A stretch of 64,000 bases of DNA, taken from the sequence record NC_070871.1; one strand, written 5' to 3'. Positions 8,576-46,000 of this stretch are shown here, one piece after another (the stretch's first letter is position 1; each line of letters starts with the position of its first letter). Below the pieces are notes generated by a model that searched no databases, had not been told where the DNA came from, and saw nothing but the letters and a program-made list of their open reading frames with translations. The stretch is from Escherichia phage PGN829.1. A program made the position numbers and the translations under genes.

Positions 8576-8876
8576 CGAGTGCCTCCATCAGTATTTTACG
8601 AATAACGTTAACATCAGATTCAGTACCAATTAAACCAACAGGTTTACCTGTACTATCAGTTACAAAGCCAGCAATCCTTTCCATCTCTGCTGTAATTAAC
8701 TTGTCACCATTAATAAGACGATTACGAAGGTAAGCCTCATAAGCTACCTCTATATCTTCTACCGTGGTTCTTTCGTTACGAGCAAATGGATTACTTAATG
8801 GGAATGGTAAATGTACCCGTATATTCCTGTCAGCTACTTTAGCTTGGTGAGGAAGTATACATACTATTTCATTCAA
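8562..8876 (-). CDS. hypothetical protein
   Basis: ORF in early operon. Confidence 0.35.
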   Translation of the reverse strand: MNEIVCILPHQAKVADRNIRVHLPFPLSNPFARNERTTVEDIEVAYEAYLRNRLINGDKLITAEMERIAGFVTDSTGKPVGLIGTESDVNVIRKILMEALGEQS

Positions 8877-8906
8877 GATTATTTCTCCTGTTTAAATACA
8901 TATCTA

Positions 8907-8950
8907 ACTATTCAAGAATAAAAAATAGGAGCCTCCTAATGGAGGACTCC
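8907..8950 (-). terminator. intrinsic terminator
   Basis: Bulged ~9-bp stem (ggagcctcc/ggaggactcc) followed on minus strand by T tract. Confidence 0.5.
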
Positions 8951-9086
8951 TTACTATTTGACACATGAATGATTGAAGGTAACAATCTTACGTACTGGTT
9001 CAGATGTCTTTTGCTTAGCAGCCAGACGTTCTTTCATCTTTTGTACGTCAGATTTATTACCTAAAATAAGTGATTTACGCATTATA

Positions 9087-9560
9087 TTAATCCTTACCAT
9101 GATTAGAGTGGAAACCATATTCATTGTTAGCTAACTCTCTAGCTTCTACAGCTTCTTCGAAAGTGTTGAATCTACCTAAATGCTTTAGCTTACCATTAAT
9201 CTTTATACGAACTCTCCATTTACCAGCTTCATATCTTACTCCCGTTGCACCTGACGTATTATTAGAAGCTCTACTTCTATTACGATTGTTATCTTGGGAA
9301 GATACTGCCCTTAGGTTTTCTAAACGGTCATCTGTTCGTATGTGATTGATATGGTCAACCATATAACCGTCAGGCAATTTACCGTTGTGCATTTCCCAGA
9401 TTATAGTAGCTGCCTTAAGATGTCGGTATTTTACTTGGACATATACATATCCACTGTACGTGTCGAAACTTCCAGCAATATCCCCACTTTTAGCTCTGCC
9501 ACTACTAACCTTCCAGTAGAGTTTGCCTTCACGGTAGGAGAAGAGTTCATGCCAGTCCAT
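9087..9560 (-). CDS. HNH homing endonuclease with AP2-like DNA-binding domain
   Basis: HNH core GYMVDHINHIRTDDRLENLR plus AP2-like GVRYEAGKWRVRIKINGKLKHLGRFNTFEEA. Confidence 0.7.
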   Translation of the reverse strand: MDWHELFSYREGKLYWKVSSGRAKSGDIAGSFDTYSGYVYVQVKYRHLKAATIIWEMHNGKLPDGYMVDHINHIRTDDRLENLRAVSSQDNNRNRSRASNNTSGATGVRYEAGKWRVRIKINGKLKHLGRFNTFEEAVEARELANNEYGFHSNHGKD

Positions 9561-9753
9561 ATTTGGTTCCCATGATTAATGACTTACGCATGTTTAGTAC
9601 TCCACATAAAGTTAAAAGGCTTGCTGTTACGTACAATTCTTACAACCATTTGATAGCCATTGAGTTGCACAACACCATAGTGTCGTTTCTGTACACCAGT
9701 GTGATATCTACGAAAGATACATTCTTCAATGGCACCTTCTATGTTAGTGAATA

Positions 9754-9972
9754 TCACTGGTTCCTCTTTGCAAACTCTTCTGCTTCTTTAGCCCATAGTT
9801 GCTTGCGTACCTCTTTAGCTACGATGGAAGCAAACAGACACTTAACGAATACAACAGGTAACTTACAGATAAGTACCAGCTTAGTTCTTACCCACTTGGC
9901 TCCATTGAGAATGTAACCACGTAGGCGATACAGCACATAACAGAGTATTACAAACGCAATGAAGTCCAACAT
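9754..9972 (-). CDS. small membrane protein
   Basis: N-terminal hydrophobic helix MLDFIAFVILCYVLY. Confidence 0.35.
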   Translation of the reverse strand: MLDFIAFVILCYVLYRLRGYILNGAKWVRTKLVLICKLPVVFVKCLFASIVAKEVRKQLWAKEAEEFAKRNQ

Positions 9973-9976
9973 AGTC

Positions 9977-10162
9977 TTACACCTTATGAAGTTTACGGAT
10001 TTGTTTACGAGTAGGTTTAGCTACAAAGAAGTGGTCATGGTGCTGACCATTCTTATCTTCTACAGATACCTGCCAACGAGCATTAAGTGATATCTTACTG
10101 CCCCAAGGTTGCAACATATTAATCATCTTCTGAGAGTTATAACGGTTACATAATGTACGCAT
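9977..10162 (-). CDS. hypothetical protein
   Basis: AGGAG RBS upstream of ATG at 10162. Confidence 0.35.
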   Translation of the reverse strand: MRTLCNRYNSQKMINMLQPWGSKISLNARWQVSVEDKNGQHHDHFFVAKPTRKQIRKLHKV

Positions 10163-10266
10163 TGTGGTTACTCCTTCATCTAATATAAATCTATATCTAT
10201 CTGGTTACTGTTTCAGTACCCTTCGTCTAAAGATACTCAAAAAGTAGAAATAGCTTATCGTCTAGT

Positions 10267-10296
10267 TAAAAATAAAAGACTCCCCGAAGGGAGTCT
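10267..10296 (-). terminator. intrinsic terminator
   Basis: Perfect 8-bp stem agactccc/gggagtct, loop cgaa, followed on minus strand by TTTTATTTTT. Confidence 0.7.
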
Positions 10297-10305
10297 TATG
10301 GTTGA

Positions 10306-10689
10306 TTAGAAAGTCAGTTTACGAGCATATTTATTCTCGTCTGCTGGGATGTCAGCAGCCTCTGCTTTCACACGACGAAGTTGAACTTGCAGGTTAATGA
10401 TACCTTCTTCACCTGGTTCCAGGTTCTGAGCATATTCGATTAACTGTTCCAGCAAGTCGTTCTGTGCACAACGCATAGCACGGAAGTCAGCATTGCTGCT
10501 ATTAGTAGGCAGTGGTTCCTGAGTATCCAGCGGAATACCAGTAGGCAATGAGATGAATTTCTCATCATCAGAGCCTTCATTAGCTACATAACCAATGTTC
10601 AGCCAGAACTGAGCTTTAGGCTTATCAGCCTTAGCAGTAGAAGTAGCAGCAGCGTTAGATTGACCGAAAGTGAATTTTTGAATAGACAT
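10306..10689 (-). CDS. hypothetical protein
   Basis: Start moved to ATG at 10689 (MSIQKF) with GGAGAG RBS; the longer track ORF would swallow the promoter hairpin region. Confidence 0.4.
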
Positions 10690-10792
10690 TTTGTACTCTC
10701 CAGATTTATGTGATTTACGGGTGAACTCGTCGGTGAGAACACCCAAACAAAAGGATAAAAGTTCAATGATTAGTGGATGCATTTACATCATC

Positions 10793-10811
10793 CATAAGAC
10801 GCGGAGCGTCT
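10793..10811 (-). promoter_or_regulatory. candidate N4-type virion-RNAP hairpin promoter (P-b)
   Basis: Template strand CCATA-AGACGC-GGA-GCGTCT: 6-bp stem, GGA loop, G at -8, template C at predicted +1 (10793). Confidence 0.5.
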
Positions 10812-10816
10812 GGTTT

Positions 10817-11035
10817 TTAAGGCTCAAAGCCAGGTTGTAATTGATAAGGTAATTCAACAACTTTCCAGTATCTATCGTGATATTCTGGAGTGGATTCGTT
10901 GATAGCATCTGCAACCTTTTGTGCAGCTTCTTCACTGTGAAAGTAAGGGAGATTCTCTACGAATTTCTCGTCTGGATAATCCCCATCAAAGTTGTCTGTT
11001 TGTACGATTTTAAACTGAGGCATATCTATCTCCAA
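10817..11035 (-). CDS. acidic small protein (hypothetical)
   Basis: 72 aa, D/E-rich. Confidence 0.4.
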   Translation of the reverse strand: MEIDMPQFKIVQTDNFDGDYPDEKFVENLPYFHSEEAAQKVADAINESTPEYHDRYWKVVELPYQLQPGFEP

Positions 11036-11073
11036 AGTAGATAGTTATCTACTTTTGATTGACTATCTAATGT

Positions 11074-11101
11074 TTATAAAAGGAGACTCCGAAGAGCCTC
11101 C
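11074..11101 (-). terminator. intrinsic terminator
   Basis: Stem ggagactc/gagcctcc (1 mismatch) followed on minus strand by TTTTATAAA. Confidence 0.45.
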
Positions 11102-11109
11102 TAGGTGAC

Positions 11110-11433
11110 TTAGTCTTTAGTCAGGATGTCAATTACTTTGGAATATTCTGCGTTATAGATACGAGCGTTCTCTGAATCCTTGCAGAATTCTTCAATACTT
11201 TTCTTACGCAGAGTCTCAGTCATAGCTGTTTCCTCTGCCAGTTTATTAACAAAGGTATGCATTTCTAATTTAGTACGAATGGCTTGTTTCTCTGCCATAG
11301 TACTTACATATGAATTAAGCATACCTACTGCTTTAGTTGCTGTACCGAATGTATCTGCAACAGTAGTAGCAGCTGAGTTAACAGTACCAAGTAAAGTTCC
11401 TGCGGTCATACGTACAGTAGCGGTAGTAGTCAT
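11110..11433 (-). CDS. hypothetical protein (first gene after P-a)
   Basis: GGAG RBS; about 40 nt downstream of predicted P-a start. Confidence 0.4.
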   Translation of the reverse strand: MTTTATVRMTAGTLLGTVNSAATTVADTFGTATKAVGMLNSYVSTMAEKQAIRTKLEMHTFVNKLAEETAMTETLRKKSIEEFCKDSENARIYNAEYSKVIDILTKD

Positions 11434-11471
11434 GATGATAGCTCCAATAGTTGATGATAGGACGACATGTC

Positions 11472-11490
11472 CATAACATGCGGAGCATGT
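11472..11490 (-). promoter_or_regulatory. candidate N4-type virion-RNAP hairpin promoter (P-a)
   Basis: Template strand CCATA-ACATGC-GGA-GCATGT: 6-bp stem, GGA loop, G at -8, template C at predicted +1 (11472); shares CCATA flank with P-b. Confidence 0.5.
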
Positions 11491-11634
11491 GTAACGTGTA
11501 AGGTGGGGTAGGGTAGTGGCTACACCGTCAACATACCGGGGGGGCTAGTTGAGTGTAAGGGTGTAGCCCCAGCCACAACACTGCTGCTGTACATAGTTAT
11601 GACCAAAATGGTATGCAAAAATATGATAGCTATC

Positions 11635-11973
11635 CTACTTATAAGCAGTTAAATAGGAGGGAGCTTTGTTTATGAAACGTATAGTCCTGAATGAGTTACC
11701 TTCCCTCACCACACTGGCTCTTATTTTTACGGGTAAGAAGATGTGGAAGTAGTCTCCTTCCGGAGCAAGGTAACAATCATGTTCGTTGAGGATAACTATC
11801 TCAGCATTACTGTTATTAAGCAGTTTATGCCCTTGGGCAAAGTTTGCTAACTCTCCAGGTTCCATTATTAGAGTAGGATTACCATAGGGCATAACGTGGA
11901 TGATTGCTTTCTCTGGTTCAGAGGAATAGTGCAGTAAGTCTGTACCATTCATGCCTAAGAGCTTAACGTTCAT
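11635..11973 (-). CDS. small-protein paralog family member (degenerate)
   Basis: Shares the block hhhxPxxE..x.G.hhL......hxhLxE with five neighbours. Confidence 0.4.
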   Translation of the reverse strand: MNVKLLGMNGTDLLHYSSEPEKAIIHVMPYGNPTLIMEPGELANFAQGHKLLNNSNAEIVILNEHDCYLAPEGDYFHIFLPVKIRASVVREGNSFRTIRFINKAPSYLTAYK

Positions 11974-12277
11974 GCTTTAATACCTGTTCAAGAATGCTAT
12001 CCATGTAATAACAGTATGCTTCACTGTTACTACTGTTTACAGGCATACCAATGTAATCAAATACCCATAAGCAGAAGTGGTTTACTTCATGGATAAGTGT
12101 CGGTAAGGGTTCTGAAAAGATACCCATAAGAACCTTATTGCCGGAGTAAGAAGTGAAACCCTTACAACCTTCTATGTCTGGTTCGTACCCTTTGAGCTTC
12201 TTGTACTTTTTTCGGAAGACTTCTCTGTCATTAACTATCTCCAGTTGTACTGGGTATGGGGATGTGTTTATTTTCAT
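11963..12277 (-). CDS. small protein with HExxH motif (possible minimal zinc metallopeptidase or divergent paralog)
   Basis: LIHEVNHFCLWVF contains HEVNH; sits inside the paralog array. Confidence 0.35.
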   Translation of the reverse strand: MKINTSPYPVQLEIVNDREVFRKKYKKLKGYEPDIEGCKGFTSYSGNKVLMGIFSEPLPTLIHEVNHFCLWVFDYIGMPVNSSNSEAYCYYMDSILEQVLKHER

Positions 12278-12558
12278 TGTCTTTCCTTATATACAGGGGT
12301 GTCATCCTCGAAGGATAGGATGTACTTATCTGTATTGAGGTGCCAAGGACTAAAGCTACCTTGCCAGGACATTGGTGTTCCTGGTTCTAGTAAATGTACT
12401 ACTGAATTCTTATTGCATAAGAAAAGTAATCCTTGTAGTTCATGCAAGGACTGTTCGTCTGGAACCAGGATAAGTACATCAGCATCTAGGTTATCTACAT
12501 CTTTATGGAGAATGTAATCCTCCCCATTAGGTTCTGGATAAACTTTACTGATAACCAT
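12274..12558 (-). CDS. small-protein paralog family member
   Basis: VLILVPDEQSLHELQGLLFLCNKNSVVHLLEP. Confidence 0.45.
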   Translation of the reverse strand: MVISKVYPEPNGEDYILHKDVDNLDADVLILVPDEQSLHELQGLLFLCNKNSVVHLLEPGTPMSWQGSFSPWHLNTDKYILSFEDDTPVYKERQ

Positions 12559-12878
12559 TAGAGGCTCTCGTCGCTAGATAAATATGAGGTAGAAGGGTAG
12601 AGGGTAATAAGTCTACCGGTTAGGGTAGTTACTACCATAGGCTCATTCACAGATAGTATGTACACACTAGTGTGTTCTGGTACTTCCACGGAATCTTCTA
12701 TCTTAATAAATTTGATAGGCTGCCCCAACATTAAGCAAGTACCAATGAACACTTCTGCTTCTTCACTTGGCTCATATAGGATGGTGGTAACTCTCTCCCT
12801 ACCTGCCAGGATATTATCCAGCGTATATGGGGATAGATAGCAAGTAGTGGCAAAGCTAATAAGGCAGTACGGGTGCAT
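12558..12878 (-). CDS. small-protein paralog family member (divergent)
   Basis: TTILYEPSEEAEVFIGTCLMLGQPIKFIKIED aligns to the family block. Confidence 0.4.
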   Translation of the reverse strand: MHPYCLISFATTCYLSPYTLDNILAGRERVTTILYEPSEEAEVFIGTCLMLGQPIKFIKIEDSVEVPEHTSVYILSVNEPMVVTTLTGRLITLYPSTSYLSSDESL

Positions 12879-12881
12879 AAC

Positions 12882-13196
12882 TTATTTCCTTACATAGTAG
12901 TAACGGTATTCCTCATTCTCATAATGACTATCCCACTGGTACTCATCAGATACCATCATGAATGGTAGAGCATCATGAGCACTACTAACAGCGTATACTG
13001 ATGGAGGAATGATACATATAACCTTACGGTCACTACCTGCTAAGAATAACTGACCTCTTGCTTCATGGTAGTCCTCTAGAGTAGGAACCAGGATTACACG
13101 TTGTGAGCTACTGTTCATGACTTCTTCTAAAGTGAAGTCATTTGTATACAAAGATTCCCTTTCAGCATAACTGGGGACGGTCATTATGAATTTCAT
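12882..13196 (-). CDS. small-protein paralog family member
   Basis: VILVPTLEDYHEARGQLFLAGSDRKVICIIPP; start moved to internal Met to match family length (track ORF extends to 13259). Confidence 0.4.
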   Translation of the reverse strand: MKFIMTVPSYAERESLYTNDFTLEEVMNSSSQRVILVPTLEDYHEARGQLFLAGSDRKVICIIPPSVYAVSSAHDALPFMMVSDEYQWDSHYENEEYRYYYVRK

Positions 13197-13560
13197 GATT
13201 GATTTTCCTTCCTTTGGGGATAGGTCTGAAGTAAATGGAAAGTGTTTTATTAAAGACATTATGGTCAGCTATCAATTCCCAACCAGGTATTTTATAGAAC
13301 CTAACACCAGGGAAAATCATACTAAAGTCGCTGTAAAAGGAGAGGTCATACACCTTTGGTTCAGTGAGTATCTTAGTATTGAGTTTCAAGTTGGATAAGA
13401 AAAGAGAACCAATAACTTCGTGGGACTCTTCACAATCAGGAAAGAATACTGATTGCCACGGGGTAATGAACTTACTTACTATCTCTGGTTCCCCAAGGTA
13501 GTAAGGTTCTTGATTACGAAGTATTCCAGTAATATCAATATCAAAAGCGTAGATGCTCAT
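13162..13560 (-). CDS. small-protein paralog family member
   Basis: FFPDCEESHEVIGSLFLSNLKLNTKILTEP; GGAGG RBS. Confidence 0.45.
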   Translation of the reverse strand: MSIYAFDIDITGILRNQEPYYLGEPEIVSKFITPWQSVFFPDCEESHEVIGSLFLSNLKLNTKILTEPKVYDLSFYSDFSMIFPGVRFYKIPGWELIADHNVFNKTLSIYFRPIPKGRKINHEIHNDRPQLC

Positions 13561-13575
13561 AATTGCATACCTCCT

Positions 13576-13612
13576 GAAAAAGAAATGGGGTAGAGCCTCT
13601 CGACTCTACCCC
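13576..13612 (-). terminator. hairpin / possible terminator or attenuator
   Basis: 9-bp stem ggggtagag/ctctacccc; minus strand then reads AUUUCUUUUUC immediately before the next RBS. Confidence 0.4.
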
Positions 13613-13760
13613 TTACCGTTTTCAATCACGGGTCAGTTCATCACCCTAGATACATGTGTATCGTTAGCCTACTAGGTAGGAAAGGAGCCGGGTAACCCTG
13701 ACTGTAGAAGTTATTAACTCTTTACGAGTACCGCCACTATCTACTAGGCGGCATGACTAA

Positions 13761-14051
13761 TCACATCGTCACCATCATCCGAACACTGTCTTTTTCTCGT
13801 CTGACGGAGACACTATGAGGTAATTTTGTGAAGAACACAAGAGATGGAATAGACTTTTCTAAAGAGTAAGTTTCTCTTGGTTCTAAGATCTTAATGCCTG
13901 GACGATTTTCTAACAGCATCATCCCAGCTAATTCGTGGTAAGTATCCTCATCGTGGGTAATGATGATATCACCTGATAGAAAGCCAACCTTGGTGTGGTC
14001 TAGCTCAGAGTATTTATCTTCAGAGTCTTGGACTCTCATATAGATTCTCAA
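13761..14051 (-). CDS. small-protein paralog family member
   Basis: IIITHDEDTYHELAGMMLLENRPGIKILEP. Confidence 0.45.
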   Translation of the reverse strand: MRIYMRVQDSEDKYSELDHTKVGFLSGDIIITHDEDTYHELAGMMLLENRPGIKILEPRETYSLEKSIPSLVFFTKLPHSVSVRREKDSVRMMVTM

Positions 14052-14222
14052 AGGTTACTCCTTTTGGGAATAGGGTCATCGGAACATTACATACTATTTA
14101 GTATCATGAACTTTTTCTATATCATGACTAAAGTGTAACTGTATGGTATCGTTTCTTCAAGGGGTATCTCACCCCAAGAAAAGAATCTTCTTTAATAGAC
14201 ATAACTTTGTAGCGAGATAAGT

Positions 14223-14912
14223 ATGAGTGAACTAACTAAGCAGCAGATTGTTAATGCCCTACCTGCTAACTTCAAAAACAGTGTAACCCAGGAGTTGGTG
14301 GACACAATTAACAACATTACCCAAGACCAACTGGTTGCTGAAGCATTCCGTGAAAACTTCATCTCTTACTCTGGAGTTATGAAGGAAGGTAAGTTTAAGA
14401 CACAGGACTACATGAATGCAGTTCAGTATGTGACTTATAAACACATGGGCTACTCAAACAAGGAAGCCTACTTCAAGACATTCCCTAACCGACAAGCAGA
14501 ACTTGTAGCAAGGGGAACCAGTGAGAAAGACATTAGTGCTTACGTGTCTGCTTACCACAGAGGCAAGCTAGTTAACCTCATCATGGAACAAAGTTTGGTT
14601 CCAGTGTGGATTGTGAACCAGGATAATTATCAGAAAGCAATCAACGTTCAGGTTGAACTAATGACCACAGCAGCCAGTGAGAAGGTAAGATGTGATGCAG
14701 CTAACTCTATCCTTACCCACTTGGCTAAACCAAAAGACCAGGTAACAAATATCAATCTGGACTTAAGAGAAAACTCTGGGTTGACTGACCTCAAGGCAAC
14801 ACTTGCTGCATTAGCTGAACAGCAAATTAATGCAATCAATAGTGGTGTACCTACCAAGGAGATTGCTGGTTCTAAACTAGTACGTGCAAATGAGGACATT
14901 ACAGATGTCTGA
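14223..14912 (+). CDS. putative terminase small subunit (N4 gp69-position protein)
   Basis: First gene of late operon, directly upstream of and overlapping terminase large subunit; function inferred from position only. Confidence 0.3.
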   Translation: MSELTKQQIVNALPANFKNSVTQELVDTINNITQDQLVAEAFRENFISYSGVMKEGKFKTQDYMNAVQYVTYKHMGYSNKEAYFKTFPNRQAELVARGTSEKDISAYVSAYHRGKLVNLIMEQSLVPVWIVNQDNYQKAINVQVELMTTAASEKVRCDAANSILTHLAKPKDQVTNINLDLRENSGLTDLKATLAALAEQQINAINSGVPTKEIAGSKLVRANEDITDV

Positions 14913-16494
14913 GTTAATTAAACAGGAACTAGATGAATGGCTGGACCAGGTGGATTACTCCTACCTTAATTCATCTAACTATGTTCCTAGTCAGTTTGCT
15001 CTTACCTTTGCCAACTTTATTAAGTTGGTTAATGGTAAGGAAGGTGAATCCAACAAAACACCTCCAGTTCACTTGAAGATGTTGGATAAGATGATTAGTC
15101 CGAACCAGTATGTAGTTAACCTGTGCTTCCGTGGTGCAGGTAAGACTGCTGTGTTCATGGAATACTTTACTTTATTCCTGGCAGTGTTTGGTCACTTGCC
15201 CAGTCTGGGTAAAGTTGAAGGGATGATTTACGTATCCGACTCAATGGATAACGGTGCTAAATCTGCACGTAAGAATATTGAGTTCCGATATAAAAACAGT
15301 GAGTTCCTTCAGCAATGGATACCTGAAGCTACCTTTACGGATAACCTGTTAGAGTTTCGTAATGTAGAAGGGCATCGGCTTGGCGTTAAGCTGTTTGGTG
15401 CTAAGACAGGTCTTCGTGGTACGAAGATATATGGTAAACGTCCAACACTCTGTGTATTGGATGACTTGATTAGTGATGGTGATGCTAACTCCAAGACAAG
15501 CATGGAAGCTATCAAGGATACCGTCTATAAAGGTGTGAACCACGCCCTTGACCCAACCCGTCGTAAAGTAATTTTCAATGGTACTCCCTTTAATAAGGAA
15601 GACATTATCATTGAAGCAGTTGAGTCTGGTGCATGGGATGTCAACGTATGGCCTGTATGCGAGAAGTTCCCCTGTAGCAGGGAAGAATTTCAGGGTGCAT
15701 GGGATGACCGTTTCTCATATGACTACATCAAAGCTCAATACGATATGGCAGTTAAGACGGGTAAGCTGGCAGGCTTCTATCAGGAACTTATGCTTCGTAT
15801 TAGCTCTGAAGATGAGAGACTGGTTCAGGATAGTGAAATTAGATGGTATAGCAGACAGCAACTGTTAAGGATGAAGTCCTGCTACAACTATTATATTACA
15901 ACCGACTTTGCTACTTCGGAGAAACAGACCAGTGACTACAGTGTCATTTCAGTTTGGGCTTATAGTTCTAATGGAGATTGGTTCTGGGTTGATGGTGTGG
16001 CTAATCGTCAGCTTATGGATAAAAACTTTGATGACCTGTTCCGTCTGGTTCAGGAATACCAACCACAAAACGTTGGTGTCGAAGTTACAGGTCAGCAGGG
16101 TGGATTCATTTCACTCCTTCAGAAAGAAATGATTAACCGTAATGTCTTCTTTAATTTTGCATCCTCTGAGGGTGGTAAGCCAGGCATACGTCCTGTAACC
16201 TCTAAGCTGTCACGCTTTAACCTGGTAGTTCCATGGTTCAAAGCTGGTAAGATGTACTTCCCAGAAGAGTTGAGAGATTCAACTATTATGGGTCTGTTCA
16301 TGGGCCAGATTAAACTAGCTACCATTAATGGAATCAAAGGTAAGGATGACTGTATTGATACTATCTCCATGCTGGGTTATCTCAATCCCTGGAAACCACA
16401 AGCAGGTATGACCATGGTGGATAACAAAGGTGACCCAATGTGGGATGATGAAGAAGAAGATAGTGTTAACCCACTACGTTCATACATTGTGTGA
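14884..16494 (+). CDS. terminase large subunit
   Basis: Walker A-like RGAGKT, Walker B-like LCVLDD, 536 aa with C-terminal nuclease-like region. Confidence 0.8.
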   Translation: MQMRTLQMSELIKQELDEWLDQVDYSYLNSSNYVPSQFALTFANFIKLVNGKEGESNKTPPVHLKMLDKMISPNQYVVNLCFRGAGKTAVFMEYFTLFLAVFGHLPSLGKVEGMIYVSDSMDNGAKSARKNIEFRYKNSEFLQQWIPEATFTDNLLEFRNVEGHRLGVKLFGAKTGLRGTKIYGKRPTLCVLDDLISDGDANSKTSMEAIKDTVYKGVNHALDPTRRKVIFNGTPFNKEDIIIEAVESGAWDVNVWPVCEKFPCSREEFQGAWDDRFSYDYIKAQYDMAVKTGKLAGFYQELMLRISSEDERLVQDSEIRWYSRQQLLRMKSCYNYYITTDFATSEKQTSDYSVISVWAYSSNGDWFWVDGVANRQLMDKNFDDLFRLVQEYQPQNVGVEVTGQQGGFISLLQKEMINRNVFFNFASSEGGKPGIRPVTSKLSRFNLVVPWFKAGKMYFPEELRDSTIMGLFMGQIKLATINGIKGKDDCIDTISMLGYLNPWKPQAGMTMVDNKGDPMWDDEEEDSVNPLRSYIV

Positions 16495-36984: not shown

Positions 36985-37029
36985 TACACAGGCTTACTGT
37001 AGAGTAAGCTTCCTATATACGATATAAGT

Positions 37030-40000
37030 TTGAACAGGAAACATGCTATGTCAACATTTGACCGTCTGGCAGGTTTCGCAGACAGCATCACTAATGCTAA
37101 GCAAGTCGATGTCTCTACTGCAACCTCTCAGAAGCAAGCTGCACAAGGGCAAAGCCCTTTCCAATTAACCCCAGAGAATGCTTACAATCTCCAAACTGGT
37201 CGTGTAGGTAATCTTGGAATTGGTGCATTCGAACCAGGTTCACTTCAGGCAGATTTCACTCAAGCCTCCCCATTAGAAATCCTTAATAAATACGGTAATG
37301 AGCAAGGTCTACAGATTATTAATAGCCGAGCTAATGCTGCTGATGTTGTACGTCAGGACTTATCTAAACAACGTACTAACGCGGAAGCATTTGGTGATAC
37401 TCTTTCTGGTGTTGGTCTTGGTGTTGCTAATACCCTTGGGGGCATTGCTGCTCTTGGTACAGGTCTGGTCAATGATAATGCCGGAGCATCCATTGCTTCC
37501 GGGATGGATTGGCTGAATGAAGGTGTACACAATTTACAGTCTGATGCACTGAATGCTACCCGTAAGGTTGTTCAGAATCAGAACCAGATTTCTGCACAAA
37601 AGAACCAGAAGCTCTATGAAGAAGATATTAAAAATGGGGAGAGCAGTTTGGTTGCCTCCCTGTCTCGCATTGGTCGTGATGCTTTTGATTCTGTTGCTAA
37701 TACACTTGATAATGGTATGGCTGCTACCGATGGGCTGAGTGAAGGTGTTGGTTCTCTCTTTACTGGTGGTCCATTAATTCGTGGTGTATCCGCACTCGGT
37801 AAAGTAATGGTAGGTGGAGATAAAGCCGTTAAAGGTATTACCCTAGCTGCTGAGTTAGGTTCACGTCCTGCACAGATTGCATTGTCTGCTGGTCGTGTTG
37901 CTGCACCTGCTATTGCAATTGGTGGTATGGAAGCTGGTGGTGCATACCAGCAGACTGCTTCTGAAATCATGAAGATGTCCCATCAAGAATTGGCAAGTAA
38001 GTCTCCTGTTTATCAACAACATATCGCTGATGGTTTATCTCCTGATGAAGCACGTCGTCAAACTGCATCTGAAACGGGTATCATTGCTGCTAGCTTAACT
38101 GCTCCAGTTGCTGCTGCTACTGGTCCACTGGTATCTAAGTTTGAACTTAACCCACTTAAGGTAGGTTCACTGGCTGGTGCTGGCTCTAACATGCTTCGTG
38201 AAACCGTAGAAGAAGGTATTCAGTCTGGTACAAGTCAGTTTGCACAGAACAAGGCAATTCAGGGTAATGTAGATGCTAAGCGTGATCTGCTTAAAGGTGT
38301 CGGTGAGCAAGCAGGTCTTGGTGCACTCTATGGCTTCGGTAGTGCTGGTGTTTCTCAGGCTCCTGGTGCAACTGTTAAAGCTGTTGGTGCTTCTGCTGGC
38401 CCTGCTCTTCGTACTACCCTGGCTGGTGCTTCTCTGGTTGGTAGTGCATTAGCAAAAGCTGCTTCTCCTATTACTAACATCCTGGTTCAACGTGGTGAAG
38501 AAGTTGCTAAGCGTAATGAACAAGCATCCCCTGTATCTGATGCCACTGTTAATGCTGCTGCACAAGAAGCTACTGCTCAGGCAGAACAAGCACAAGCAAC
38601 TGTACAGGAAGCAGTAGATGCAATGGATATTTCTCCTGAAGAGAAAGCTGCTGCTACTCAGTATGCTGCTGACTTAACTCAGGCAATGAAGTTTGACCCA
38701 GTAGAGTTAGAGCAAGCTAATCCAGCAATCCGTGAAGCCGTTTCTGGTTCCACTAACCGTGTTGAAGCTATTCAGAAGATGGCTGACCTGGTTAATACTG
38801 CCGAAGACCCTAACGTTCAAATGGAAGCTGCAATCCAGATGTATGACAATATCATGTCTATGGATAGCTTCATTAACCGTGACCCAGGTGCTCTGGCTAA
38901 CCTGGAACAAGGTTCCCCTGCTGCTGCAATCGTTGACCAGTTCTCTGGTCTGATGGCTAACGTTCAGAATACACCTAAAGTACTTCGTGCATTCCGTGCT
39001 ATTCATTCTATGATTCAGGAACAGGCTGAAGCAGGTAAACTGAAAGCTACTGAAGAAGCCAACCAAGCCCAAGCAAACAATATTGCTATGGCTGCTGATA
39101 TGTCTCCAGAAGTACTGGATGCTGATTCAGTGAACATGATTCTGAAACATGCAAGTGAAGGTAAGATTACACTGGGGAATCATCAGCGTGCTGCCCTGCA
39201 ATCGGCTGCTGCCTTGTTACAGGGTGCACGAGAATTTGATGCTAAAGCAGAAGAACTAGGCTTACGTCCTCAAGACATTGTTAGTAAACAGATTAAAACC
39301 GACGAGTCTCGTTCTAATGAAGGTCAGTACTCTGCGTTGCAACATGCTAAACGCATTCGTTCTGCGTACAACTCTGGTAATTTCGATTTGGCTTCCGCTT
39401 ACCTCGACGACTTTATGAAGTTCGCCCAGCACATGCAGAATAAGGTCGGAGCGTTGAATGAGCATCTGATTTCTGGGAATGCGGATAAGAATAAGTCTGT
39501 CCATTATCAGGCTCTTACTCCCTCCCGTGAATGGGTACGTAGTCGTACTGGTCTTGGTGTCAATCCGTATGATACCAAGTCGGTTAAGTTTGCCCAGCAA
39601 GTAGGACTGGAGGCCAAAACCGTAGCTGATATTGCTAACGCACTTGCTACGGCTTACCCGGAGCTTAATGTTTCTCATGTGAAGGTTACTCCATTAGATT
39701 CACGTCTGGACAAGCCTGCTGCCCAGGTAGTTAAAGAGTTCCGTCAAGGTGGTCTTGATGCCACTCAGTCTCAACAGACCAATGAACCAGTGAATCAGGT
39801 TGATGAAACTCCTGCACCAGCGCAAGAGACTACTACTACTGTACAGCCTAAAGCTAAACCAGTGGTAGAAAATAAGACTGTTCCTGTTAAAGAGGCTAGT
39901 TCAAAAGCAGAAGAAGTCTCTACTACTAAGTCTGAAACAGTAGATGCTACCCTCACCAATGAGGATACCACTCAAAAAGTAGCTGAAACTAAAACGGAAA

Positions 40001-43000
40001 TGGAAACAGTTTTCCCTGTCTATAACAATGACAAGACACCGAACCAGTTCCTGAAATCATTTACCCTGCCGGAAGAACCTAAGTCTCGCACCATTGGTTC
40101 TGAATCCCCTTTGACTGATATTAAGCAAGCACTGTCTTCTACTGCACGCTTTGAAGCATTCACTCAAAAAGAAAATAACGCTCTCACAAGTGATGTGATT
40201 AAGCGTTATCAGGACTTAATGGGCTTTGGTGAAACTCTGAAGACTACTCTGTCTGATCGTCTGGCTAAGTTTCTTGCTAATAAGAACGTTGGTAAACGCT
40301 TTGCAGAAGGCACAGAGGCTAACCGTTGGGTAGGTGGTAAGTTACTTAATATCGTAGAGAAAGACGGAGACACCTTTAAGTTCAATGACCAGTTGTTAGA
40401 GACTGCTGTACTTGCTGGTCTGCAATGGCGACTGACTGCTACACAGAATGCTGCTGTTAAAGACATGAAAGATGTAGCTGCTATTACTGGTGTAGAGGCA
40501 TCTCTGTTACCTGAAGGTATTCTGGCTGACTTCGAGAATGCTCAGACTCTGGTTGAAGCTACTAACTCACTGGCTCAAAAGATTGAATCTTACTGGGGTT
40601 TGAATCGCAATCCAAATGCACCACTGGGTTATACCAAAGGTATCCCAATGGCAATGGCTACGGAGATTCTGTCTTCTTTCATTGAGATGGGTGAAGTTAA
40701 AGAATCTATGCTGGATGTGTCTGAGTTTGACCCAGACTCTAATAAGACCGTCGGTCTGTATACCATTGAGAAGCTGGATGATAACGATGCCATTAACAAG
40801 TTCCCTACTGCTATCGAGGAAGCTGTTCTCGTAGAACCAGAAGAGAAAATGTACTTTGGTGATGATATTCCTTCCGTGGCTCAAACTCAGTTACGTAACC
40901 CTGCTGTTAAGAATACCCCAGAGCAGAAAGCTGCTCTTAAAGCAGAACAGGCTACCGAGTTCCGTGTACACATGCCGATGGTTAACTTCTATGAAGCATT
41001 AGGTCGTGACAACATTCTGGAACTGATGGGTGCTGGTACTCTTAATCCTGAACTGCTGAACGTGAACACTGCTAAGTCACTGGAGGGTAAAAACCTGTCA
41101 GTGTCTATGGCATATGATTCCCTGTTCGGTGTAATCAACCAGTTACAGGAACAGGAGAATGGTCTGGATACGCCTATTCACTATGGTTACAACATGACCC
41201 GTGTAGGTCGTATGCAGATGTTAGGTAAGAACAACCCACAATCCAGTAAACTGGTTCGTGAAGCAATTCTGCCAACCTTCTCTACTATTGACTTGAGTAA
41301 TGAAAATAGCCAAACATTCTCTGACTTCCAGCTAGGACTGGCTCAGGCATTGGGTATCAAGGTACATAACATGTCCCGTGAAGCTATGTCTGAAAAGTTG
41401 ACCAAGGCTCTGGAAGGTAATCTGAAACCTGCCGTTGATATGGTGGTTGAGTTTGATAAGTCTGGTCACTTACCAGCTAATGCAGTGGATATTCTGAAAA
41501 CATCTCTGGGCGGCGATAAATCATTCGTAGCTCTTATGGCTCTTATGGAATATGCCCGTTACCTGAACAGTGATGACCGTGCCAACTTTAATACCCCTCT
41601 GTACGTTGAAGCCGATGGTGTAACTAACGGACCAATCAACGCAATGGTATTAATGACCGGTGGTAAGTTCACTTCAGACTGGGTTAAGAATACTGCTAAA
41701 GGTGGCTTGTTCTTCGGTAAAGCTGGTAAGACTATGAATGAACATCGTTCACAGGATGACAGTGTTGACCTGTATGAAGCATCTACCAATGGTCTGCAAC
41801 AAGCACTTAATGAGTTACGTACTACTTACCGTAACAACGTTCCGGTTATGAACCAAATGAATCATCTTCAGAAGTTAATGGACCTGTTTATTAAAGACTT
41901 TAACCTGAATGAAGACGGTACTCTGGACCTGAAACGTGGTATCGCTAAAAACCCACTGACTATTACCATCTATGGTTCTGGTGCTCGTGGTATTGCTGGC
42001 AAGATGGTTAGTGCAATTACTGACACCATCTATGAACGCTTCAGTGATGTTCTGCAAGCTCGTGCTGCTGACCCTAGCATTTCCCCAGCTATGGCAATGT
42101 TTGGTAAGGAGGCTGCGTCTGAGGCTGATGCTCAGGCTATGCTGGATACTTTCCTTACTTCTATGGAAGCACTGACTGGTAATGTTCCAGTTATGCGTAA
42201 AGGTGAACTGTCTATTCAACAGGTAGAAGGTGCTCTGACTGGTAAGTTAGACCCTCAGAAGTTTACCGTATCAGGAAATGCTCTGAAGAACTTACAAGAG
42301 AACATGCTTCACCTGTTCGTTGAACCAATGCGTACTGGTATCCGTAATACTGTTGGTGAAGGTCTGATGCATTCTACTGAGAACTTGCAGAAGGCTACCC
42401 AGATTCAGTCACTGGTATTGCAGGATATGTTCCAGCAACGTGTCCAGGAGAAGCTAGCAGAAAAAGAAAAAGACCCAACATGGAAAAAGGGTGATTTCTT
42501 AACACAGAAAGAACTGAATGAAATCCAGGAATCATTATCCCCACTAGCTCCAATGATTGAGACTGGTTCACAGACTTTCTACATTGCTGGCAGTGAAAAT
42601 ACTGATGTTGCTAACCAAGTTCTGGCTACCAACTTAGATGATCGTATGCGTGTGCCAATGAGCATCTATGCTCCTTCACAGGCAGGTGTTGCAGGTATTC
42701 CTTTTATGACCATTGGTACTGGCGATGGCATGATGATGCAGACCCTTTCTACTATGAAAGGTGCTCCGAAGAATACCCTGAAAATCTTTGATGGTATGAA
42801 CATTGGTATCAACAACATCACTGATGCAAGTCGTAAAGCTAATGAGGCTGTATACACTTCCTGGCAGGGTAACCCTATCAAGAATGTCTACGACTCCTTC
42901 TCTAAGTTCATGAAGAATGTAGACTTCAGCAAACTGTCTGATGAAACCAAACAGGCTATCGCTAAATCTGCTCTGGAATATGACCAGCGTGAAGGTGCTA

Positions 43001-46000
43001 CCGATGACCTGTTACGTGTTGGTGCTGAACAGATTGAACGTAACCTGCGTAATATTGCTCTGGGTGTAGATATTCGTCACAAAGTAATGAACCAGGTACA
43101 GACTACTGTTGACCAGATGGCTGCTGTTGGTGCTCCTTATGTGAACAACGGTAAAATCTCTCTGGAAGGTCTGACCGTAGACCAACAAGTAGCTAAGCTA
43201 AATGAACTGTTCGATGCTGAATTAAACAAACGTCGTGATGCAGTACGTGCTGCTAAAGTAGAACCAGTGAAAGAAGTGCCAGCAATGGAACAGGTTGGTC
43301 GTGTACTGAAGTCTGGTGTACGCCTACTGTCTAATACTGCTATCTCTAAGCTGGCTAAAGAGATGTCTCCGGAACAGCAAGCAGTACTGAAAGAAGTACA
43401 GAAATCCCTTGCTGCTAAAGACTATAAGGTTGTTTACGGTACACCTTCCCAACTGGATGCTTATGCTATTGAGAAGAATATTACTCGCCCAGCACCAGAA
43501 GATATTGAAGCTGCTGAAGCTGGTAATGCGTATGGTTGGACTAACTTTGAAGATAAGACCATCTACTTAGTTACCCCTTCCTTAGAGACTCTGGTTCATG
43601 AATTGGTGCATGCTTCTACTTTTGAATCTGTACTGGCTCACTATGAGGGTACTCCTAATGAAGCGGTCCAGAACATTGAAGACCTGATGAACCAGTTCCG
43701 TGCTCTGGATGTTAAGGATGAATCCCCGGCAGTTCGGGAAGCATATGCAGATGCTCTTAATACTATTAACGGTCATTTATCTAATGGCTTTATTGAGCCA
43801 GCAATGGCTAAAGCTGCTGCACTGAATGAGTACATGGCATGGGGTTTAACCAACCGTGAACTGATTAGTAAGCAGAAGAAAACCACTGCACTTAAGACTA
43901 TGGTTCAGGCTGTATATGAAGCAATTAAACGTCTGGTATTCGGGCGTAAGAAAGCACCAGCTAATGCAGATGATATGTTCTCTGGCTTACTGTTTAACTC
44001 GTCCGTAGTTATGCGTGGGCAAGCTCCTACTGCTGCTGTAGTCAAAGATACTACTCTGTTCCATAACAAAACGTATGGTGACAATACTCGTCTGGAAGAG
44101 CTAGGGAAAACCTTCGATAAACTGATTACTGACTACATTGGTTCTGAACCAGTACAGCAAGTAATTCGTAAAGGTAAGTTCTCTGATGCAGTGGTTAATG
44201 CGACTAAAGTAACTCGTGATGTTCAGGCTCATGGCTTCACTATGAATATGCAGGAACAACGTCTCTTTACTAACATTGTTGCTGCTCTGGCTACTGAGGC
44301 TGCTATTAATCCTGCTGCTCTGGCTCGTGCGCAGGAATACTACACACATGTTACTAAGAACCTGACCGTTGAGTCATTCATGACTGACCCAGATAGTACT
44401 AACCCTGCTGACCGTTACTATGCACAGCAGAAGTTCGATACCATCATGGGTGCTAACAACATTGAGTTTGATTCACAAGGTCGTTCCTCCTTACTGCCTA
44501 CCTTTATTGGTCTGGCGATGGTAAGTGAAGAGGTACGTAAAGTGCTGGCTGATATTCCAGTTATGAAAGTAGACAAGAAATCTGGCAATACCGCTGATGC
44601 AATGCTGACTAACATCGGTACTGCTGCAATGGCTAGTCTGAATGCTCGTGTAGCAGGAGATACTAAAGCTACCAACGTACAGGAAGGTATGGATGCACTG
44701 GCTCAGACAATCATGCAGACCAGTCTTAATGCACAATCCTTCTATGATTCCGTTGCTACTCCTACGGGTAATGCTATTGATCGTGCTAACCAGTATCTGG
44801 TGGACTCTATTGATGTACTGTCTACCCGTGCTTTAGAAGGTGCTCGTGAAGTTGCAGCTAATACCAAGAACCCGTTGGTTAAAGGTGCTGCCCATGCTGC
44901 ACAATTAATAGCTGCTATTGCTACAGAGAAGAATGGTGCAATCGTAGCCGAAGGTGTTATGGCTGCAATGAACCAAGGTAAAGTATGGCAACCCTTTCAC
45001 GATCTGGTTAATGACTTAACTGGTCGTACTAAGAGTAATGCTTCTGTATATGATTTGATTAAGGCAGTGCGTGCCCAGGTACAGGCTGACCGTCAACAGT
45101 TCCGTGAACATCTGCCCACCACTATCGCATCTAAGTTCAGCCGTAAGCTGACTAATGATGAGTGGAAAGCAATGCATACCGGTATGGGTAAAACCGACTT
45201 AGCTGTTCTGCGTGACACTATGTCTCTGGCTGAAATTCGTGACCTGCTGACTGACCAGAAGATTGTTGACCGTGAGGTTAATAAACTGGAAGCAGATTTG
45301 CAGAAACAAGCTGGTCGTAACTGGCCTTTGATTAACCGTAAATCTAAGCAACTGGCTCAGTACATGATTAATGGAACAGTTGGTAATAACCTGCTGCGTA
45401 ATGCTACAGCAATCTCTCGTATGCTGGGTGAACGTCAGGCTGCACGTTCTACTGTAGACGTAGCTCAACTGGATAAACTGATTACTCTGTATGCACTGGA
45501 AGCAATGAGTAAAACTGACCGCGAGGTGTTATCTTCACTGGCTCAGACAGAGATTGAAGGCATGGACTTCGCTACTTCTTATCTGGTTGGTCAGCGTAAA
45601 GATGAAATGGCTAAAGCCAAATCTGATACTCGTGCAACTCTGAACCAGTACAAAGGGTATATTCCTGGTGAGACTAAACAGGGTGTTAACTTGATAGTTG
45701 CTGAAGATAGTCAGTTTGCTGATTTGATTGAGAAGTCCTATGTACGTCTGGGTACTTATCAGGGTAGCTCTGCTAATCGTGGTCCAGCACGTAGCTACTA
45801 CTTTGCACCGGTACAGGCACAGGCTCCATTCTCGCAAGGTATCTTACAGAACGTTCGCAATACTGCTGGTGGTGTAGACCTTGGTACAGGCTTTACGATG
45901 GGTACAATGGTAGCTGGTCGTATCACTGACAAGCCTTCTGTAGACCGTATCACTAAAGCACTGGCTCGCGGTGAACGTGGTAATGAACCACTGCTGCCTG

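Follow-up and report, generated by a model that had tools for sequence, protein, structure and literature searches.

What is the role of a phage protein of only 104 residues that carries the HExxH motif of zinc metallopeptidases within an array of small genes, several of whose products read HExxG? The preliminary description of this DNA, a stretch of 64,000 nucleotides that we refer to as the window, offered two answers: either the protein is a minimal metallopeptidase whose neighbours are paralogs that have lost the second histidine, or the resemblance to a peptidase is fortuitous. These answers can be separated by asking how the motif is conserved, on which fold it would be displayed, and whether the neighbours are related to its carrier at all.

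By nucleotide similarity the source phage is an N4-like coliphage (Schitoviridae, Gamaleyavirus), the best records being ZQ2, HK2, IME11 and U1G at ~88-96% identity. The gene is part of a series of small genes on the minus strand that is oriented away from the terminase operon on the plus strand (large subunit at 14884-16494). In the annotated relative ZQ2 this series extends, without a change of strand, into the genes for the phage RNA polymerase subunits. In the gene order of N4, the corresponding block comprises the early, host-takeover genes. As a scan of the minus strand over nt 1-14300 for N4-type vRNAP promoter hairpins (stem of 5-7 bp, loop of 3 nt) returned no recurring motif, it is from gene order only that we consider the 104-residue protein to be probably made early. 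Strong hairpins are found in two intergenic gaps of the leftward block (13561-13760 and 14052-14222, in the minus-strand reading): one, GGGGTAGAG-N8-CTCTACCCC followed by a T-run, is terminator-like and lies just upstream of ORF 13162-13560, and another, GGGGT-GAGAT-ACCCC, is located in the divergent region facing the terminase operon. Elsewhere among the small leftward genes, ORF 9087-9560 (minus strand, 157 aa) displays HNH-like and AP2-like features on inspection of its sequence (DHINHIRTDDRLENLR, then GVRYEAGKWRVRIKINGKLKHLGRFNTFEEA) and looks like an inserted homing endonuclease.

The gene itself occupies 11963-12277 on the minus strand and reads from ATG to stop as MKINTSPYPVQLEIVNDREVFRKKYKKLKGYEPDIEGCKGFTSYSGNKVLMGIFSEPLPTLIHEVNHFCLWVFDYIGMPVNSSNSEAYCYYMDSILEQVLKHER. 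The HExxH reported in the preliminary description is indeed present: the stretch TLIHEVNHFCLWVF includes H63-E64-V65-N66-H67 (HEVNH), encoded by nt 12077-12091. A Shine-Dalgarno-like sequence, AAGGAAAGA, can be read directly at nt 12280-12288 of the minus strand, 5' of the start codon, and the ATG (12275-12277) shares an ATGA overlap with the TGA of the upstream ORF 12274-12558, which suggests translational coupling inside the leftward operon. With dN/dS values of 0.06-0.22 across nine orthologues, taken from pairs with unsaturated dS, the ORF is a real gene under purifying selection. Escherichia phage U1G encodes the very same protein (100% identity), annotated as 'hypothetical protein'. The product of the gene matches phrog_1365 with E=1.2e-29 and has no signal peptide, hydrophobic N-terminus or membrane segment that could be recognized in its sequence.

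The 3' end of the gene has a history of its own. A 341-bp segment (window 11664-12004) replaces 25 bp of ZQ2 (4874-4898) within it, and this segment holds most of ORF 11635-11973, a paralog from the surrounding array. The ancestral tail of the putative peptidase gene, ...PSYLTAYK and stop, now ends the inserted ORF, while the putative peptidase gained a new end, ...VLKHER and stop. On comparison of the two sequences, this clearly reads as the insertion of a cassette by recombination within a coding end.

Is the motif more than a coincidence? HExxH by itself is a weak signal. In the ORF segments of the window of at least 60 aa it occurs four times, with 0.87 occurrences expected, a multiplicity that would leave room for a chance motif in a protein without any metal site. 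We therefore turn to its conservation. A word-indexed search returned only close relatives of the Gamaleyavirus type, 105 clusters with no identity below 56% in the region aligned, from which an alignment termed A1 was built. An exhaustive profile search against 1.84 billion representatives (E<=1e-3, clusters at 50% identity) matched 566 family representatives, almost all of 100-130 aa and all without annotation; a broad alignment was assembled from 150 of these. Its mean column identity is 14%, and its sole invariant columns are H63, E64 and H67, each found in 150 of 150 representatives by direct count. E86 (codon 12020-12022) is conserved in all 149 full-length representatives, the remaining sequence being a truncated fragment, and Y90 (codon 12008-12010), one helical turn further on, in 146 of 149. 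Conservation is lower for G40 (142/150), G52 (108/150) and, in the residue region following the latter, F54 (113/150). The family signature is thus HExxH-x18-E-x3-Y, with E86 located 19 residues past H67. Since H63, E64, H67 and E86 are retained to this extent, the HEVNH of the 104-residue protein stands above chance. The fortuitous resemblance considered in the preliminary description is effectively refuted by this conservation, and with histidines and glutamates invariant in so divergent a family, and placed on two consecutive predicted helices as in zincins, we give a chance motif next to no credence.

The pattern of conservation also bears on function. E64 is invariant although it would not be a metal ligand, which argues for catalysis over mere metal binding. 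Two of the 105 close clusters carry substitutions in the active site of otherwise intact proteins, namely P0090 with HALNH (E64A) and P0102 with YELNH (H63Y), the latter cluster comprising 10 sequences and lying on a 67.7-kb contig. These variants may represent inactive alleles, in which case the activity would not be indispensable in every phage, or else errors of sequencing.

On which fold would these residues be displayed? An AlphaFold2 model computed from alignment A1 (mean pLDDT 95, pTM 0.86) consists of a strand (residues 11-15), a helix (18-29), two further strands (40-45 and 48-53), a long helix (57-75) and a C-terminal helix (85-103). This is the order of elements described for the core of the zincin-like metallopeptidases (MPTases) (Iyer et al., 2017; PMC5512222). 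In the model, HEVNH falls within the alpha-helix 57-75, as expected of an active-site helix, and residues 48-53 (KVLMGI; nt 12119-12136, minus strand) form the third strand directly before it. E86 begins the following helix and would provide the third zinc ligand, a position that agrees as far as sequence and predicted secondary structure can tell. The structure prediction proposed earlier, with its search for a third ligand, thus points towards a zincin-like core with a candidate metal site. Neither a missing third ligand nor a fold unlike that of metalloproteases, which the preliminary description had named as grounds against a peptidase, was found in the prediction.

A fold search against the viral structure models of BFVD yielded 22 matches with E<1e-3, all of them uncharacterised phage proteins, with TM values of up to 0.88. 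The weaker matches that carry a name are all zincins: SprT-like (2e-3), a PolyVal metallopeptidase (7e-3, TMq 0.76), BepA-like (0.018) and IrrE (0.027), besides entries named 'Peptidase' and 'Metallopeptidase'. Against the PDB, the best Foldseek match was SPRTN (6mdw) at a non-significant E=0.15.

No curated peptidase family was matched above threshold. Pfam gave no match for the ORF, and for the 150 relatives only sub-threshold ones, to SprT-like (5 of 150, best E=0.0028), DUF4344 and Astacin. In NCBIfam, no family exceeded the threshold for the ORF or its relatives, and PADLOC likewise returned nothing for either. Sequence searches of the PDB, whether started from the protein or from its family profile, produced motif-level matches only (E>=0.16), the listing of the profile search including chains of the N4 'Virion DNA-directed RNA polymerase' at E ~0.4-0.5 and bacillolysin at E=1.9. 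In PHROGs, 64 of 64 tested members fall in phrog_1365, of 'unknown function', and all GenBank entries examined for the family are labelled 'hypothetical protein'. The phrog_1365 family is thus claimed by no Pfam, NCBIfam or PDB family. A literature search covering phrog_1365, MPTase-PolyVal and HExxH in connection with anti-defence found nothing on the family of the 104-residue protein.

A non-zincin enzyme built around HExxH, such as an Fe/alpha-ketoglutarate-dependent hydroxylase of the HExxH type, was weighed against this background, as the motif is also present in alpha-ketoglutarate-type enzymes (PMC13434306). One of 64 members does approach TIGR04267, the aKG-HExxH beta-hydroxylases, at a sub-threshold E=0.032, but this is a single weak match, the 104-residue protein is far smaller than such enzymes, and its structural neighbours are zincins. 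We regard a hydroxylase as extremely improbable.

Among the zincins, which of the known groups does the protein resemble? With the SprT-like, Wss1 and SPRTN proteases (PF10263) it shares a small zincin core with HExxH, and it is a protein of this group that provides the best match in the PDB fold search, the BFVD match at 2e-3 and the sub-threshold Pfam matches in 5 of 150 relatives, none of which reaches the gathering threshold. The third ligand of SprT and SPRTN is a histidine shortly past the motif (HExxHxxxxxH). At this position, however, the 104-residue protein has F73; its residues 68-85 include no histidine, and it is Glu86 that is conserved as the third residue. Unlike the SprT-like, Wss1 and SPRTN proteases, it also lacks a zinc-ribbon or DNA-binding extension.

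The spacing recalls the gluzincins instead. In thermolysin (M4), H146 is followed by E166 and D170, and the archaeal minigluzincins have ~100-110 aa. With H67 followed by E86 and Y90, the 104-residue protein likewise has a glutamate ~20 residues past HExxH and a conserved residue four positions on, a likeness at the level of motifs; there is no significant match in sequence or structure to the gluzincins (M4, minigluzincins), bacillolysin scoring E=1.9.

The ImmA/IrrE peptidases (M78), finally, share HExxH and a downstream glutamate with the 104-residue protein and are common in phages. The preliminary description had suggested a profile search against peptidase families, naming ImmA/IrrE and SprT-like among them; it brought no Pfam match to ImmA/IrrE (PF06114), and the spacing and flanking motifs are unlike those of this group. 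Nor is the setting alike: ImmA/IrrE peptidases are partnered with an HTH repressor, whereas none is adjacent to the 104-residue ORF, whose neighbours are small ORFs without Pfam domains, and the phage is virulent. The ImmA/IrrE peptidases act as anti-repressors in phages and ICEs.

An indication of kinship comes from within the phage itself. The virion RNA polymerase (vRNAP) of the window, a 3465-aa protein encoded by ORF 37003-47397 on the plus strand, carries HELVH at residue 2199 (nt 43597-43611) in the stretch TIYLVTPSLETLVHELVHAST; its local sequence TLVHELVHA(S) is nearly that of the consensus of the 104-residue family, TLVHELxH. In N4, vRNAP residues 2130-2448 have been assigned to the zincin-like MPTases (Iyer et al., 2017; PMC5512222), and a structure paper from 2026 describes a corresponding subdomain C1 (2124-2375) of the gp50 CTD with a conserved HExxH, giving no function for it (PMC13434306). 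While only one fragment came from a word-indexed search that used the vRNAP domain as query, tblastn on phage records gathered 13 sequences from diverse Schitoviridae, from which a domain profile was made. By hhalign, the 104-residue family aligns with these 13 domains over 85 columns that span the backing helix, two strands and the active-site helix (93.5% probability, P=2.3e-7). After masking of the five motif columns, this register still ranked at the top (P=0.008), compared to P=0.2-0.67 for reversed and column-shuffled controls. The 104-residue protein is thus probably a distant homologue of the vRNAP zincin domain, and we call this homology probable rather than certain because it stems from one pairwise comparison of profiles.

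Both are phage-borne, and both comprise three strands, one N-terminal helix, the HExxH helix and a following helix. They differ, however, in context and in detail. The 104-residue protein is a free polypeptide, predicted to be made after infection, whereas the MPTase of the vRNAP is a domain of an injected, multidomain (polyvalent) protein of ~3,500 aa that is packaged in the virion. In the former, ~9 residues separate the two C-terminal helices and 18 lie between HExxH and the glutamate; in the vRNAP domain, glutamates that are invariant in the 13 Schitoviridae are located ~30 and ~85 residues past HExxH, in the motifs 'I/L-E-x-L-M' and 'L-N-E-F-M-A-W'. In addition, the 104-residue family extends to phages without such a vRNAP, with members beyond the N4-like phages in Ackermannviridae (Det7, PhiSH19 and others) and Autographiviridae (RSB3). 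These distant members also sit within blocks of small unannotated ORFs; around Det7, RSB3 and metagenomic contigs, no conserved partner gene was found, but only unannotated small ORFs or unrelated late genes.

Could the HExxG proteins next door nevertheless be decayed copies of the same peptidase, minus the second histidine? At first sight there is some appeal in this. The 104-residue ORF is flanked within the array by family members on either side and resembles them in size. In both cases a strand leads into a helix that, in several members, opens with H-E, and the N-terminal halves are both strand-helix-strand-helix. Four neighbours carry the motif, as HELQG (aa 39-43 of ORF 12274-12558), HELAG (aa 39-43 of ORF 13761-14051), HEVIG (aa 47-51 of ORF 13162-13560) and HEARG (ORF 12882-13259). 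However, the preliminary description, which had placed HEVNH at the same position as these, did not hold on this point: the motifs are brought into register by neither iterated HMM nor hhalign, those of the neighbours being ~20 residues closer to the N-terminus. In pairwise BLAST, the four ORFs are interlinked and none is linked to the 104-residue ORF. An iterated HMM built on ORFs from ten related loci converged on 49 members, including six minus-strand ORFs of the window (11635-11973, 12274-12558, 12558-12878, 12882-13259, 13162-13560 and 13761-14051), and in five rounds it never recruited the HExxH ORF that lies between two of them. Thus, the ORF is embedded in the paralog array physically, as had been described, but it is not a member of the family.

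Direct comparison of the two families leads to the same end. Their hhalign probability is 0.4%, with the motifs left unpaired in the best local alignment, so that the clean alignment of HExxH with HExxG that had been named as evidence against a peptidase was not obtained either. In the motif columns of the 49 neighbour-family members, glycine is present in 49, histidine in 24 and glutamate in 28, and histidine never occupies the glycine column (0/49). Compared with the zincin domain of the vRNAP, the neighbour family reaches 0.1%, versus 93.5% for the HExxH family. An AlphaFold2 model of the neighbour ORF 12882-13196 (pLDDT 83) has a motif helix of 13 residues, then five strands with one short helix between them, and no glutamate helix; the C-terminal half, helical in the 104-residue protein, is beta-rich in the modelled neighbour. 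A loss of the second histidine from common paralogs is, on this evidence, very improbable. The neighbour array is a separate gene family and the likeness of its HExxG is superficial.

The neighbour family is conspicuous in its own right. A database search with an alignment of its six window members yielded 769 proteins or clusters, all unannotated, and where a contig is given, these are mostly on contigs of ~70 kb, like the genomes of N4-like phages. The paralogs diverge fast, with 16-29% identity between copies; their helix consensus is E...G.LL.N with an invariant glycine, and each window copy falls in a different PHROG. The longest call of ORF 12882-13259 (125 aa) overlaps the preceding ORF by ~100 nt. 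As its PHROG match starts from residue 22, translation probably begins from the ATG at 13196, giving a protein of 104 aa.

Taken together, the active-site helix, the candidate ligand E86, the order of the core elements, the zincins among the BFVD matches and the profile link to the vRNAP support the part of the preliminary description that saw a minimal metallopeptidase here. We consider it likely that ORF 11963-12277 encodes a stand-alone, minimal zinc metallopeptidase of the gluzincin type, comprising little beyond the zincin catalytic core. In such an enzyme, one Zn2+ would be held by H63 and H67 on helix 57-75 and by E86 at the start of helix 85-103, and the zinc-bound water would be activated by E64 as general base. 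Y90, one turn past E86, may buttress the site or stabilise the transition state, and a peptide substrate could run along the edge strand 48-53, as general zincin architecture would have it. Having no signal or membrane segment and being encoded in the block that precedes the RNA polymerase genes, the protein is most likely cytoplasmic and early, and it may cleave one particular protein of the host or of the phage while the cell is being taken over. Selection on the gene, the conserved residues, the order of the predicted fold and the separateness from the neighbours are observed; that the protein binds zinc, that it is proteolytic, when it is made and what sort of substrate it has are predictions throughout.

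Does a zincin fold with an intact metal site necessarily imply a protease? The protein might instead hydrolyse other bonds, such as an amide or ester in a small molecule, or one in a signalling nucleotide or a modified side chain of a protein; or it might be a metal-dependent binding or inhibitor protein. Its very small size, with no extra substrate-binding domain, would be in keeping with this, as would the lack of a significant match to biochemically characterised peptidase families, the natural E64A and H63Y variants among close relatives, and the absence of any demonstrated proteolysis by the related domain in the vRNAP. On the other hand, the general-base glutamate is invariant in 150 of 150 representatives, the named structural neighbours are all peptidase families, and other zincins of 100-110 aa, for example the minigluzincins, are peptidases. 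A function other than proteolysis thus appears unlikely, if a good deal less so than the readings discounted above.

What, then, would such a metallopeptidase mean for these phages? Zincin-like peptidases are well known in phages, and the kind is therefore not new. The family, in contrast, is new: it is unnamed in Pfam, NCBIfam and PHROGs, and no literature on it was found. Listed so far as 'hypothetical' or of 'unknown function' in the databases searched, phrog_1365 gains a testable prediction, that of a zinc-dependent endopeptidase. It is a large family, with 566 clusters at 50% identity in N4-like, Vi1-like, T7-like and uncultured phages. At 104 residues, the protein would rank among the smallest complete zincins and would offer a compact scaffold on which to study the catalytic core. 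The probable kinship further ties it to the HExxH subdomain of the N4 vRNAP, to which structural papers of 2025-2026 ascribe no function, and the reading of the locus is corrected in that the surrounding array is a separate, fast-diversifying family rather than a set of decayed peptidases.

The small early genes of phages house functions in host takeover and anti-defence, and most are unannotated. We can speculate, with little confidence as yet, that the 104-residue zincin is an early effector protease acting in trans on a defined target, either destroying a host protein involved in defence or housekeeping or, more speculatively still, processing the injected giant vRNAP or other ejection proteins. 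In the latter version, it would be a soluble equivalent of the C1 zincin domain that the vRNAP itself carries. If true, the role of an effector protease would be the first function assigned to this family, which counts hundreds of clusters in phages, and a role in vRNAP processing would offer a way into the unexplained HExxH domain that N4-like virion polymerases carry.
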